A DNA stretch of 64,000 nucleotides from positions 307,671-371,670 of the forward strand of contig CANRCD010000002.1 of the NCBI GenBank assembly GCA_947629005.1, written 5' to 3'. Of the stretch, positions 48,001 to 54,000 are shown in pieces. Position numbers: made by a program. Every line of letters starts with the position of its first letter. Positions within the stretch are counted from its first letter, which is position 1. This DNA comes from an uncultured Clostridia bacterium. GTDB taxonomy: Bacteria > Bacillota > Clostridia > UMGS1883.

Positions 48001-51000
48001 TTCAGGTTCCCTCGGCGCTGGATGTGGACAGCTTTGTCAAAGGCCGAGTGAACCTGCTTCGGCTCGAGATCCCCGACGGTTCGCCATTAAATGGGCTCAG
48101 GCTGAACGAGGTCGAAAAGAAAACCGGCCTCCAGCTCCTTGTCTGCATACTCGAAAGCGACGGGAAAGTCATTATCCCGAACGGTGAAACCCGCCTCAAA
48201 TCCGGCGACAGAATATCCATGGTGCTGCCGAACAACGAGCTCCGCGCCACGCTGAACCGCATCGGCATTAAGACCAAACCCATAAAGAACGTGATAATTG
48301 CCGGCGGCGGCAACATTTCGTACTATCTGGCTAATATGCTTATACACGCCGGCGTTCACGTTAAAATACTCGAAATCAACCGCGCCCGCTGCGAGGAGCT
48401 GAGTCTGCTCCTGCCCGACGCCATGATAATAAACGGCGACGCTTCCGATCAGCAGCTATTGATGGAGGAGGGATTGAGCAGCGCCGACGCGCTGGTTTCG
48501 CTTACCGGCATTGACGAGGAGAATATCCTGCTTTCGCTGTATGCCAACAAGGTGTCGCAGGCCAAGCGAATCACAAAAATCAGCAAGATAGCCTTTGAGG
48601 AGGTCGTGCGCGAGCTCCCGATAGGCACGGTGATCTGCCCCAAGCGCATAACCTCGCAGCTCATCAGCCGCTATGTGCGCTCCATGCAGAACTCCATGGG
48701 CAGCAATGTTGAAACTCTTTACCGCATGATGGACGACCGCGTTGAGGCGCTTGAGTTTAAAGTTTCGCAGTCCGCCAAGGGCGCGTTTCTGAACGTGCCG
48801 CTTATGAATCTGAATCTGAAGCCGAACATCCTGATATGTTCGATTATCCGCGGCAAAAAAGCGACGGCTCCCCGCGGACGCGATATGATTAAGAACGGCG
48901 ACACGGTCATCGTTGTCACCACTACCACAGGGCTTAACGACCTCAGCGATATTTTTGAGTAAAGGAAGCCTATCATGAACTACGGAATTATAAAATACAT
49001 TGTCGGCTCGGTCGCCAAAATAGTGGGCGCGGCCATGCTTCTGCCATTTGCTGTGGCGATAATTTACAGCGAGCGGGAGTGGCTGATTTTTCTGCTCTGC
49101 GCCCTTGCCTTCGGCGCGGCGGGATGGGTGATAACCCGCAAAAAGCCGAAAAACACCGCCTTTTTTGCCCGCGAGGGCTTTGTTACGGTGGCGCTCAGTT
49201 GGATAGTGATGAGCGTGCTTGGCGCGGTGCCCTTTGTGGTCAGCGGGGCCATACCGAATGTTGTCGACGCCCTTTTTGAGATAGTTTCCGGCTTCACCAC
49301 CACCGGCTCAAGTATTCTTACCGACGTTGAGGCCCTGCCGCGCTCCATACTTTTCTGGCGCAGCTTTTCGCACTGGATAGGCGGCATGGGCGTACTGGTA
49401 TTCATCATTGCCATTCTTCCGATGGCCGGCGGCCAGAATATTTACCTTATGAGGGCGGAAAGCACAGGCCCCTCGGTGGGCAAGCTTGTGCCCAAGGTGC
49501 GCAATACCGCCGTTCTATTGTATTCCATTTACACGGCGCTCACTCTAATGCAGCTTGCGCTGCTCCTTATCGGCCGTGTGCCCGTATTCGACGCCTTCTG
49601 CCTTGCCTTTGGCACGGCGGGCACCGGCGGCTTCGGAGTGCTTGGCGACAGCTTTGCGAGCTACTCTGCCTTCGCTCAGAACGCCACCACTCTGTTCATG
49701 CTGCTCTTCGGCGTGAACTTCAACTTCTATTTCTTCATCATCAGCCGCCGCTTTAAAACCGCTTTTGCGATGGAGGAGGTTCGCTGGTACTTCACGATTT
49801 ATGTCTGCGCAAGCGCGGCGATAGCGCTGAACCTGTTTTTCAGCGGCAGCTTTGTGAGTCTCCGCGAGGTGCTGTTCCAGACTTCGTCCGTTATGACGAG
49901 CACAGGCTTCGCCTCGGCGGACTTCAACCTCTGGCCCAGCTTTTCGCGCGGGCTTATGATAATGCTGATGTTTACCGGCGCCTGCGCGGGCAGCACCGGC
50001 GGCGGCATGAAGGTCTCGCGTTTTGTTATTTACGTCAAGACCGTCGCCAAGGAAATCCGACAGCTTGCCCATCCCCGCAGCGTAAAACTGCTCAAGATGG
50101 ACGGGAAGCCTATCGAGCACGAGGTCATACGCATTGTGAACGTGTACCTTTGCTCTTTCATACTGGTGTTTGCGGGCTCATTTGCTATAATTTTGCTTGA
50201 CGGGTTTGACCTCACCACCTCGTTTACCGCAGTGGCCGCCACACTGAACAACATCGGGCCCGGCTTAAACATGGTGGGGCCGACAGGTAATTTTGCCGAA
50301 TTTTCAGTGGTTTCAAAGCTGGTGTTCATCTTTGATATGCTTGCCGGCCGTCTGGAAATTTTTCCGATGTTCATGCTTCTCAGCCCCGCAACATGGAGAA
50401 GGCAGGGATAGGATTTTGACTCGGGGAGCCCATCGGGCTCCCTGTTTCCGCATAATAAAACGGGCGGCCAATGGCCGCCCGTTTGCAGTGGATATATTTA
50501 CATTTCAAATACCTGTCCGGCTCCGCCAAGATACTCCTGCGTTACAGAGCCGTCGGCGTGAACGGTAAGGTAAAGGCCGCTGTTTTTGTTCTTCAGGCGG
50601 AAGCCGCCGCCATATACGTTTTCAACGGTGAACAGTTGGTTGGCGCTGCCGTAGTAATCATAGAGGATGAGCGCCGCTCCCGGCTCGGTTGAACCGTTGA
50701 GAATGTCGAATGAAAGACCGGATTCGATTTCGATTATCTTGTAGCAGCCTTCCTCCTCGGCCGAGGAAAGCCTCCACTCGCTGCCGGTTACGCCGGCGGA
50801 AACCGTTGCGACGGAGTCCTCGTCAACAGGATCGGCGGCCTTAAGGGAAAGCCCGTTGACCGAAAGCAGGCCCTTTTTCACATCGGCCTCGCCGACCTCT
50901 ATAAAGGCCCAGCCCTTAGGCTCCACTGCCTGACCGGCCGCCTCGCCGAAGGGGTAAACGTAGAGTTGGTAGCGGGGGGCCATGAGGGCGAGAGTGCCGT

Positions 51001-54000
51001 CCTCCTGAGGATAAACGGCAAATTTTTCGTCAATGGCCCAAGTGCCGCCGTACTGAGCGATATTTTTGCCGCTGAGGGCGCTGTCGTCAAGCTGGATGGG
51101 CTTGCCGCTGTTTGCGCTGATTATCTTTATTTTATTGCCGTATTTCTCAATGCGGAAATGCTGCCCCGCCGCAGCGGTGTAACGATTAAGGGTGAGGGCT
51201 ACGTCGTTGTCCTTGGAATTGCCCGGCACAGTCCATGCGCGGTCGGTGGAAAGGTCAACGATTTTGTAAAGCTTGCTCTCGTCAAGAGAGGAGTTATCGC
51301 TGTCGCTGCCGGCAGAGCGGGCGGCGGCTGTAAGCTCTTCAATGTACTTCTCGCTTTCGGAATAGTCCTTGAAGTATTCCTTGTCTGCCCTGTAAAGCAG
51401 GCCCTCAAAAATTTTAAGGCGGTTGGGGTAAACCTTCCCGAGCTCGGCGAAGGTATCTTTGCCGAGGTTCGTCCAGTAAAGACGGCTGAACTCGGCCAAA
51501 TCTTCGGTTTCATTGCTGGAACCGTAAGAGGAAATGGGCGTGGCGTCAAGGCGCTCGGCCAGCGACCACACGTCAGGGTCGTTCAGCATATTCTGCTCGA
51601 GCACATGGCCCAGCTCATGGGAGAGCGTCTGGGATATCTGCTGGCGGGATGGCTCCCATGTCAGCCTTATCCATATAGAATTGCCGCCGCCGTTATAGCT
51701 GTTGGCCGTGTCGCCCTTCTTCCAGTAGAGGTAGTGAACGTGCTGGCGCAGGGCATAGGGGAACACGCCGATTGCCTCAATGGACTTGGTTATCATCTCG
51801 GCGTTCGGGTCCTCCTCGTTGGTAGCGAACTGGAACTTATGCACCTGACCGGGCACGTCGCCATCCATTTCAACCTGAAAAACCCAAGCCGTGCAAAGGC
51901 TGCCCCGCCATATATCGAAATCCTTGACCTGTTCCTGACTTACTATTTTATATGGAGCTACCTTTTCGTTCACCACATTGCCCACCACCTGGCCGGAGGC
52001 GGTATAGGTAAGGGCGGTTGTAAGCACGCGCTTCTGCATTTCAGCAGAGAGGTTCTCGTAATCCCTTGTAGAGAGCAGCGTTTCGGCGTTGTTATACACA
52101 TCGCGGCTGAGGTCAAGAGCGCTGAAGAAGTAGTTGTCGAAGGCGCGCTTGAGGTCGTCCGATAAGAGCTTATATCCCTCGGAATCCTTTGCTTTCTCCA
52201 TAAGCGAACCGCTGACGGTCTTAAGCGTCCACTTGGCCGCCTCGGAGGACTTTTCGCTTATCTGCACCACCTTGCCGTCCACGTCGGCCAAATACATATC
52301 CGCGTGGCTGGGCTTGATGGTGTAGGCGTCGCCGTCCTTTTCAAAAAGCATCTTCTGCTGGGCGTTGCCGTTGTAGGAATACTGAATAAGCTGCACGCCC
52401 GACTCCTTTTTCGCGTCGGGCACGTCAAGGCTTCTGCCGCTATGCTTGTTCACCGCATAGCACAGGCCGCCGCTGAGCGGAGCCAACCGCCATATCTGTC
52501 CGGCGCTGGGTTTGCCCGAGGACTCGAGCGCAAGCTCCTCAGTGACGATGAGGTCCAAATTGTTCGTGCCGTTGTTTTCTACGGCGATAACGCGGCCGGT
52601 AGACTTGTTCACTATCACGTTGTAAGTGTTTTTGAACGGGTCGGCCGCTTCGACGGCTGTCAGCGCCGCCGCGGGAACCGCGTCCTCGGCGAGGACGGGG
52701 GCCGCCCCGAGCAGCATTGCCGCCGCGATGGCTGCGGATAGCAGCCTCTTAAAAAGCTTTTTTTCCATTTTTACCACTCCTCGTTTTTTCAAGCTACTTA
52801 TATGGTAATTATAGCACCATATCTTGTGCGTGTCAACATTATTTTGTGATATTTATACAAATTTTGTTGTGATTTTTTACAATAAACTTCCGTATATGTG
52901 TTGACATTTTCGTCAATATGATGTATAATTGTAACATAAATGTAAAGGAGGACAAGAAAATGAAAACAAAACGATTGCTGGCGCTCCTCACGGCGGCGGT
53001 CATGGTTCTCGGCGTGCTGCCGGGGATAGGCTTTGCCGAGGATACGCAGGCAAATCCCAACACCGTTGTTATTGAGACGAATAAGACCATCACACAGAAC
53101 ATACACACCGGTGAACTGGATGAAAAAAGGGATAAGAATAATCCCGACCCGGATAATTCCCTCTATATCTACCATTCCAACTGGAATCAGAGGAACGGCT
53201 ATGTCGGCTTTGAACTTGCTGATAAATTTACCGAGGAACAGCTTTCGGACAAATATTATGTAAAAAAAGCTACTCTTAATGTATATGCCTCCTCAATAGA
53301 TACAAAACGCAGCCCCGGCGTAAGCGTTGTCGCCATAGACAATACGCTGTGGAACGAGGAGAAATATACCGCTCCGGAGACGCTTGGGCTGCCGGTTTAT
53401 AACATTACGTCAACCACAACTGCAGTCCCCGAAGATATGGTCGAGATCGACAGGCAGGATATCTCCTCCGTCGGCGACTATAATTTCGATGTAACAAGCT
53501 ATGTGGCCGAAAATCTGGCCGCACTTCAGGAAAAAGGCATTTCCTTCGCGCTTATCAGTATTACGAAGTCCGGCGAAACAACCGGTGACGCAGAGGCTAT
53601 CAAGCTTATTATCGACGGCAAAAACGGCGAAAATAAGCCCACCCTTACCGTGGAGTTTGCCGAAGCGGCCAGCGTTGAGCTGAGCCTTGTGGGCCCCGAT
53701 GACCTTGACCTTGGCAAAAAGACGATAAAGAACCTTGCTTCGGGCAGCGAATACACCCCTACCGATACCGACGCCCCGGTCGTTATCGCGCACGAGGGTA
53801 AGTATTATGTGCGCGGGGAGCTTACGGCAGCTACGCTTGGCCCCGGCGTAAACAATGTTACGGTGGAATATACCGAGGCTGCGATTGAATCCGTTGCCGA
53901 GCCTGAAAATGTGATAACGTCGGTTATCGACGGCAACCGGCCCATTCTGCCCAAGTACCTTTCCGCCACCCTTGAGGGCGAAGTCACTGCGGATGTTCCC

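Follow-up and report, generated by a model that had tools for sequence, protein, structure and literature searches.

A predicted lectin-guided zinc endopeptidase with an anthrax-LF-like core, and its paralog, in an uncultured Clostridia bacterium

What kind of domain lies between the lectin domains of two proteins whose kind public records describe only as 'RICIN domain-containing protein' or 'hypothetical protein'? The genes in question, here called A and B, stand 14 kb apart in the 64-kb stretch of DNA from an uncultured Clostridia bacterium that we analysed (the window), and each encodes a probable zinc-protease domain that has gone unannotated. An earlier note on this DNA described them as ATLF-like/ricin paralogs of a small, expanding family. 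We report an analysis of their sequences, predicted structures and orthologs, from which we conclude that gene A probably encodes a secreted, lectin-guided zinc endopeptidase with an HExxH gluzincin core of the anthrax-LF/Pro-Pro endopeptidase (PPEP) type, and that A and B are true paralogs. The features of the locus are collected in Table 1.

Table 1. Features of genes A and B and of the neighbouring gene BIG, in positions of the window.
Feature	Position	Strand	Remark
Gene A, open reading frame	50498..52792	-	Present in sequence
Gene A, 756-aa protein (predicted secreted): beta-trefoil, zincin core, two beta-trefoils	50498..52768	-	Stop codon included
Gene A ribosome-binding site GAGGAGTGG	52774..52782	-	Read in sequence; upstream of the ATG at 52768
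Gene A promoter: TTGACA, 17 nt, TG-extended TATAAT	52808..52836	-	12/12 matches
Gene A predicted Sec signal peptide, aa 1-27 (MEKKLFKRLL...APVLA/ED)	52688..52768	-	
Gene A N-terminal ricin-type beta-trefoil lectin domain, about aa 45-187	52208..52636	-	
Gene A 298-aa catalytic core, aa 190-487	51308..52201	-	N-terminal helical bundle and zincin alpha/beta domain
Gene A putative zinc-binding and catalytic motif HELGH	51605..51619	-	H384, E385, H388
Gene A YGSSNETEDLAE	51491..51526	-	Tyr415 (putative oxyanion residue), Glu422 (putative third zinc ligand), Asp423, Glu426
Gene A C-terminal beta-rich region, two beta-trefoil lectin domains, about aa 497-756	50501..51280	-	
Gene B, 860-aa paralog: Cu_amine_oxidN1, beta-trefoil, core, beta-trefoils	33906..36488	+	
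Gene B HELGH	35409..35423	+	Also with Tyr533, Glu540
Gene B promoter: TTGACA, 17 nt, TG-extended TAAAAT	33846..33874	+	11/12 matches
BIG, 1878-aa protein (predicted secreted): BNR_4, Big_4, weak CBM96 match, C-terminal ricin domain	52960..58596	+	Pfam
BIG promoter: TTGACA, 17 nt, TATAAT	52901..52929	+	12/12 matches; back-to-back with gene A promoter

Translation of gene A likely starts at the ATG at 52768, before which stands GAGGAG, to give the 756-residue product. Within the ribosome-binding site, AAGGAGTG is kept in alignments with the orthologous loci of four other species, and the promoter keeps its -35 box, TG and -10 box across five species. The sigma-A promoters of the two genes had been called perfect or near-perfect, which is correct for A and B respectively, both having the extended TG. 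Judged by eye, residues 1-27 of A combine a basic n-region, a hydrophobic core and a VLA cleavage motif, and they are disordered in the full-length AlphaFold model (pLDDT 88, pTM 0.80); the sequences of both products suggest that they are secreted. One ricin-type beta-trefoil lies N-terminal of the core of A and two lie C-terminal of it. These domains are identified in A and B by a significant profile match (PF14200 / PF00652, CBM13-like) together with the beta-trefoil fold, canonical QxW triplets numbering one in A and three in B. Elsewhere CBM13 trefoils are attached to a glycoside hydrolase (e.g. the C. thermocellum exo-beta-1,3-galactanase, 3vsf) or to a toxin A chain, whereas those of A and B are joined to a zincin core.

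The putative active site is formed by two conserved elements. The HELGH motif (aa 384-388 in A, aa 502-506 in B) is invariant in three alignments of relatives and, in A, sits on a long helix (residues 186-205 of the core model). Downstream of it, the YGSSNETEDLAE segment of A was aligned by HMMER with SYGRTNEAEFFAE of LF, and a tyrosine is followed seven residues on by a glutamate, the candidate pairs being Y415/E422 in A and Y533/E540 in B. The same Tyr-x6-Glu spacing is found in PPEP-3, between Tyr190 and Glu197 (PMC12828418). Among 26 full-length relatives H384, E385, H388, Y415, G416, E422, D423 and E426 are all invariant. By analogy with the M34 enzymes, zinc would be held by His384, His388 and Glu422, with Glu385 as the general base and Tyr415 as the residue stabilising the tetrahedral intermediate.

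Among known folds, the one predicted for the A/B core comes nearest to that of the anthrax-LF/PPEP (M34, ATLF) family. The AlphaFold model of the gene A core has a pLDDT of 96.8 and its best Foldseek match is LF; on M34 structures about 155 of the 298 residues superpose, at about 15% identity. LF is also the sole match of a profile search of the PDB (E 0.24-0.3), in which both HExxH and SYGxTNxxExFAE were aligned. The likeness to M34 proteins (LF, PPEP-1/-2/-3) extends to the placing of HExxH on a long active-site helix, to the downstream Tyr-Gly...Glu helix with its Tyr-x6-Glu spacing, to the layout, with an N-terminal subdomain that is alpha/beta and a C-terminal one that is helical, and to secretion, M34 members being secreted Firmicutes proteins and A and B predicted to be so; with LF, A and B further have in common the motif SYGxxNxxE(D/x)xAE. 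The description 'ATLF-like' does not extend to Pfam membership, since ATLF (PF07737) gave no match to full-length A or B or to their isolated cores, even at E<=10. Among 70 relatives six match ATLF weakly (best E 1.5e-5); the only one of these matches inspected singly, that of relative P0097, scores 21.6 bits, below the cut-off of 27.4. Neither A nor B has a profile match to Peptidase_Mx or Peptidase_Mx1 (PF15887 / PF15890) or a peptidase assignment from the NCBIfam models, and the core as a single-sequence query found no match in Pfam, NCBIfam or the PDB.

The core of A also differs from its M34 counterparts, in having an extra N-terminal helical bundle of about 65-80 residues and long beta-hairpins. 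It differs from the PPEPs in being flanked by three beta-trefoil lectin domains; the accessory domains covered by a review of the PPEPs are peptidoglycan-binding anchors, and beta-trefoil lectins are not listed there (PMC8610288). Furthermore, no neighbour of A carries tandem PP sites and a Pro-Pro specificity is unsupported. The structural scores of Peptidase_Mx/Mx1 (4l7a, BACCAC_01431) and of MtfA (3dl1 / 3khi) against the A/B core are below those of M34. MtfA is a cytoplasmic protein, in contrast to A and B, which bear lectin domains and seem to be secreted.

The relation of A to B is considerably more extensive than the collinear block of about 300 residues first proposed. The collinearity stands, but a single BLASTP alignment extends it to about 690 residues of the full-length proteins (E 6e-54, 173/691 identities, 25%), taking in the ricin domain at the N-terminus and the beta-trefoils at the C-terminus; the 298-residue cores alone are 28.6% identical (E about 1e-36). 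The motifs quoted in the earlier note are all present, namely FDNYFFSALDLSRD versus FNSYFFTDVDFSKS, TLSHELGHVLE, SSYGSSNETEDLAEFSRLY and YPNRLK versus YPNRTK. The similarity is not a convergence of short motifs, HExxH, Tyr and Glu are intact and free of disabling substitutions in both copies, and A and B are true paralogs. A difference in domain order, on the other hand, had been read wrongly: both proteins run from a beta-trefoil through the core to two beta-trefoils, and B merely has an added N-terminal Cu-amine-oxidase-like (Cu_amine_oxidN1) domain. Similarly, 'divergently transcribed' holds for A and its neighbour at 52960..58596, but A and B point towards each other. The product of B is identical to P0004 of a public protein collection.

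That divergent neighbour of A, the giant carbohydrate-active-like BNR_4/ricin gene BIG, has orthologs (53-55% identity) lying directly upstream of and divergent from the A orthologs at three other loci (L002, L003 and L004), and its promoter hexamers are kept in the multi-species alignment. The A-BIG pairing and its promoter region are thus kept in other species, and A and BIG are probably co-regulated. Gene B is without a conserved partner, its neighbours varying between genomes: its orthologs elsewhere adjoin ilvA/ilvB/ilvN/ilvC (names read by eye from ORF translations), unlike the arrangement in the window, and a conserved synteny for B was accordingly rejected. A horizontal-transfer island was likewise rejected for A and B, as the GC content at both loci (0.55-0.56) is like that of the DNA around them and housekeeping genes adjoin both.

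The wider family, as defined by an exhaustive profile search, numbers 620 representative proteins at E<=1e-3, of which 34 reach E<=1e-30, other glycan-binding modules among relatives being ricin, PA14, NPCBM and GLEYA. Queried with the A core, a word-indexed protein search gave two matches; with the B core it gave none, though the collection contains B. Orthologs of A and of B (54-90% identity) occur in metagenome-assembled genomes of related herbivore-gut Clostridia, which also hold a third paralog class, C; several relatives carry at least two of the three classes. The proposal of a small family thus proves sound in the sense of a multigene family with at least three paralog classes in this clade. 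That the family consists of young duplicates, expanding and diversifying under selection, is to us the least credible of the explanations considered. It could draw on the presence of two copies within 64 kb, on the third class in relatives, on the faster evolution of the lectin and Cu-amine-oxidase-like domains, and on the fact that A and B are each a singleton 90%-identity cluster in a collection of 15 billion proteins. The duplication of A and B is nevertheless old: identity between their cores is only 28%, and in the tree each gene groups cleanly with its orthologs from 4-5 other species. Values of dN/dS for A and B are 0.10-0.24 overall, falling to 0.05-0.17 in the core, the most constrained part, with no domain above 0.5, and therefore indicate purifying selection; the window holds no further copy. 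Recent duplication and positive selection were rejected on the ortholog clades and dN/dS, and the expanding, diversifying family is largely refuted.

Other explanations concern what the proteins do. In a PPEP-style self-processing, A would cleave proteins that the cell itself secretes or carries on its surface, perhaps the BIG product among them, like PPEP-1 of C. difficile and PPEP-2 of P. alvei, so that cleavage might switch between adhesion and release or mature the BIG protein. PPEPs are among the best structural matches of the A core, PPEP genes adjoin the genes of their substrates (PMC8610288), and the adjacency of A and BIG with their shared promoter region is kept in other species. BIG was nonetheless rejected as a PPEP-type substrate, having a single Pro-Pro dipeptide, no tandem cleavage repeats and no LPXTG-type anchor; moreover, A and B fall by sequence outside the PPEP family, B is without a conserved partner, and the three lectin domains of A suggest glycan targets over the cell's own proteins, all of which makes this explanation improbable. 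We regard it as very unlikely that the proteins are AB-type toxins or effectors aimed at eukaryotic cells, be they of the host epithelium, gut protozoa or fungi, in which case the ricin-B-like trefoils would serve receptor binding and uptake and the LF-like zincin would act as the toxic protease inside the cell. The core fold is indeed related to LF and to the ATLF domain of Certhrax, among the beta-trefoil matches are binary toxins, mosquitocidal toxin and components of botulinum HA, and one distant relative has a WXG100 domain. Against this, both genes lie amid housekeeping genes with no compositional anomaly, mobile-element context or translocation/pore-forming partner, the full-length model of A is without a translocation domain, BIG is carbohydrate-active-like, and purifying selection maintains A and B in the genomes of commensals of the herbivore gut. 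Just as little probability attaches to the HExxH domain acting on a non-peptide substrate or serving as a mere binding scaffold between lectins. HExxH is lost in some relatives, so the scaffold is able to serve non-catalytic roles, but both the A and the B clade keep the full M34-type catalytic set, including Tyr-x6-Glu, invariant and strongly constrained, and every one of the best-scoring structural neighbours is a true or derived peptidase domain.

For the secreted, lectin-guided endopeptidase that we favour, the trefoils of A would direct the enzyme to extracellular substrates decorated with glycans, for which glycoproteins, or protein lodged in the plant or host glycan matrices of the herbivore gut, are candidates. 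The specificities of A and B most likely differ, because the 67 fixed differences between the A and B clades, dense at aa 335-383, cluster in the strands before the active-site helix. A bolder proposal, which we think rather unlikely, is that A, B and C form an unrecognised peptidase family, absent from Pfam and NCBIfam, distantly derived from the LF/PPEP fold and steered by beta-trefoil lectins to glycosylated proteins, with A and BIG as a conserved two-gene module. In herbivore-gut Clostridia the enzymes would then strip protein from heavily glycosylated plant or host polymers (such as arabinogalactan-proteins, extensins or mucins) while the PL24/25-like BNR_4 protein BIG would attack the glycan part.

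A profile for the catalytic domain, which is now missed, would be a direct gain for annotation. Since their putative substrate-binding strands differ, A and B make a natural pair for studying the evolution of specificity on an LF/PPEP-like fold, and the conserved pairing with the giant polysaccharide-lyase-like BIG offers a lead to a module that would degrade glycan and protein together. Should the core prove to be an active peptidase, it would define an unannotated branch of the LF/PPEP-like gluzincins and would add a lectin-guided type of protease to the enzymes of uncultured herbivore-gut Clostridia.

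Gene A and its paralog, gene B, lie 14 kb apart, and the relationship between them is solid: a single collinear BLASTP alignment of 691 columns joins the two proteins (25% identity, E 6e-54), which is more extensive than the earlier note had claimed, and the 298-aa putative catalytic regions, or cores, taken alone share 28.6% identity (E about 1e-36). Every peptide motif on which the original observation was built is present in A or B; no third copy of the gene was found within the window. In A and B alike, Pfam shows the core flanked on either side by ricin-type beta-trefoils, and it places Cu_amine_oxidN1 at the N-terminus of B only, so that both proteins read trefoil, core, trefoils, with one extra N-terminal module in B; the differing domain order reported for them is wrong. 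Likewise, A is divergently transcribed relative to its adjacent gene, BIG, but not relative to B, since A and B are transcribed convergently.

The gene A ORF was confirmed in the sequence (see table), and translation most probably begins with the ATG at 52768, which fits the product length first reported. This ATG is preceded by GAGGAGTGG, a ribosome-binding site kept in the orthologous loci, and the -35 box of the promoter upstream marks the end (52836) of the feature as originally delimited. By eye, the N-terminus (MEKKLFKRLL...APVLA/ED) looks like a Sec signal peptide, and this putative signal stretch is disordered in the full-length AlphaFold model (pLDDT 88, pTM 0.80).

Features of genes A, B and BIG in the window, and related loci in other genomes
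Feature	Position	Strand	Remarks
ORF near B	29481..30812	-	443 aa
Surroundings of B	30809..38142		BcrAD/DUF2229 activase gene, B, sipL
Gene B	33906..36488	+	860 aa
Gene A ORF	50498..52792	-	confirmed in sequence
Gene A, likely coding region	50498..52768	-	756 aa
N-terminal trefoil of A	52208..52636	-	CBM13-like
Parts of A in full-length model	trefoil aa 49-186; core aa 189-484; all-beta C-terminal region aa 499-756		predicted, after a disordered signal region
Gene A promoter	52836..52808	-	TTGACA-17-TATAAT, extended TG, 12/12; upstream of ORF
A/BIG intergenic region	52769..52959		190 bp
BIG promoter	52901..52929	+	own 12/12 consensus
BIG	52960..58596	+	1878 aa, secreted-type; BNR_4 (E 2e-21), Big_4, weak CBM96, C-terminal ricin (Pfam)
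A orthologs	L001-L004		67-88% identical, full length
B orthologs	L013, L014, L015, L017, L018		54-68% identity
Class C (core + ricin, 514-526 aa)	L010, 2360..3904; L012, 5686..7266		shorter third class

Neither whole A and B nor their excised cores match a peptidase model in Pfam or NCBIfam or, in single-sequence searches, any PDB sequence. With profiles drawn from 4 or 33 members of the family, the sole PDB match is the catalytic fragment of anthrax lethal factor (LF; 2l0r), at a non-significant E of 0.24-0.3; in this non-significant alignment HExxH falls on HExxH and SYG(S/K)xNxxED(L/F)(A/G)EF on LF SYGRTNEAEFFAE. The AlphaFold model of the A core, made from a 33-sequence alignment, is highly confident (pLDDT 96.8, pTM 0.92) and begins with a helical bundle of ~65 residues; long beta-hairpins and three short strands follow, then HELGH on a helix of 20 residues, and last a helical C-terminal half on which the Tyr and Glu lie. 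In a structural comparison the Peptidase_Mx structure (7.0), with lugdulysin (6.8) and MtfA (6.6) after it, scores below the LF/PPEP-type structures. Foldseek also ranks LF first, but at E 0.039, and only about half of the core superposes on the nearest fold. The putative catalytic sets, His384, Glu385, His388, Tyr415 and Glu422 in A and His502, Glu503, His506, Tyr533 and Glu540 in B, have the same Tyr-x6-Glu spacing as the Pro-Pro endopeptidase PPEP-3, whose catalytic residues are His153, Glu154, His157, Tyr190 and Glu197 (PMC12828418). The label 'ATLF-like' thus fairly describes only the nearest fold and the pattern of the active site, and sequence does not place A and B within that family.

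Searched exhaustively with an HMM, a set of 1.84 billion representative proteins gave 620 hits at E<=1e-3, of which 82 reached <=1e-10 and 34 reached <=1e-30; about 30 of the hits match over the whole core. In public records close relatives go by nothing more specific than 'RICIN domain-containing protein' or 'hypothetical protein' and carry no precomputed peptidase domain, and A and B are each singleton clusters at the 90% level. Among 70 relatives compared with Pfam, the recurrent accessory domains are ricin (12), PA14 (7), Cu_amine_oxidN1 (6) and NPCBM (2), and the weak peptidase matches are ATLF (only 6), Peptidase_Mx1 (5) and Peptidase_Mx (3). The N-terminal trefoil of A is closest to the CBM13 of the Clostridium thermocellum exo-beta-1,3-galactanase Ct1,3Gal43A (33% identity, E 4.6e-10). 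This enzyme attacks the backbone of arabinogalactan-protein, which offers a lead to a possible ligand of the trefoil.

Taken together, the evidence best supports reading A as a zinc endopeptidase that is secreted, guided by its lectin domains and part of a distant LF/PPEP-like lineage lacking annotation; its catalytic activity, its secretion and glycan binding, and its substrates are all inferred. Less well supported is the reading of the core as a non-peptidase scaffold. HExxH is indeed lost in six relatives outside the window (P0017, P0022, P0024, P0027, P0028 and P0037; e.g. SMVMGY, ACVLGY), which retain other residues invariant in the family and probably form a pseudo-peptidase branch; at least four of these six proteins were in the alignment of relatives in which Q56, W212, D219, D234, P259 and R261 of the core are invariant. 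The catalytic set is present in both A and B. A PPEP-like self-processing protease and an AB-type toxin are likewise less well supported than the lectin-guided endopeptidase.

The same is true of A and B as a young diversifying family. An ortholog scan with one genome per species gave at least 19 loci, all but one from metagenome-assembled genomes of uncultured Clostridia; two of the genomes are named Oscillospiraceae and one Clostridiaceae, and some record names indicate gut samples (rabbit, 'Lapin'; roe deer; water buffalo). Mapping and a neighbour-joining tree give three clean clades, A, B and C. By eye, the N-terminal stretch of class C resembles the Cu-amine-oxidase-like domain. At least four genomes hold two classes, A with B in two and A with C in two related metagenome-assembled genomes, and a fifth, among the matches listed, has two other copies. 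The family is therefore small and multigenic. Between pairs, dN/dS lies at 0.10-0.20 in A and 0.21-0.24 in B, and for most pairs dS is saturated; constraint is strongest on the core (0.05-0.17) and weakest on the lectin and Cu-amine-oxidase-like parts (up to 0.5). A and B separated long ago, and purifying selection maintains both genes; 'expanding' and 'diversifying', as the earlier note had it, are not supported. Fixed within each of clades A and B yet different between them are 67 core positions, densest at aa 335-383 of A, the strands directly before the active-site helix (e.g. SIWIRL in A, EVWNNT in B). Since the corresponding region of PPEPs carries the substrate-binding edge strand (PMC12828418), the substrate specificities of A and B appear to have diverged, and the two may be old, subfunctionalised paralogs.

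Both genes have ordinary chromosomal surroundings, in a spore-forming Clostridium-like organism, B near a two-component system, BcrAD-type activase, SipL and Rnf, and A near DUF1015, Wzz/ParA-like, TrkA/TrkH and Pst-PhoU phosphate transporter genes; no GC anomaly was found at either locus. No Pfam family matches (E<=1e-5) the 443-aa ORF that separates the response regulator from the activase. The neighbours of B are not conserved between genomes: in four orthologous loci (L013, L014, L017 and L018) the upstream ORFs resemble, by eye from translations, ilvA, ilvB, ilvN and ilvC, whereas in the window B lies between the activase gene and sipL, and it has therefore moved chromosomally yet remained intact.

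A, by contrast, keeps its upstream neighbour: BIG orthologs (53-55% identity) are adjacent and divergent to A orthologs in L002, L003 and L004. BNR_4 is tied in the literature to PL24/25 ulvan lyases, and CBM96 has been described as an alginate-binding module. BIG was rejected as a PPEP-style substrate, since it lacks LPXTG and contains the Pro-Pro dipeptide only once. Conservation of the shared intergenic region extends to five species, with two back-to-back consensus promoters and, between their -35 boxes, a conserved block, TTGTAAAAnnTCACAACAAAATTTGT, that is a candidate operator; in the window the palindrome TTGACGAAAATGTCAA overlaps the BIG -35 box. The conserved divergent pairing and this conserved region with its promoters and TTGTAAAAnnTCACAACAAAATTTGT argue for co-regulation and a functional link, and A and BIG, a giant protein of carbohydrate-active-like type, may form a two-gene module that is conserved. 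For herbivore-gut Clostridia, the chief yield is an unannotated putative catalytic domain, together with a testable pairing of protease and lyase-like genes.
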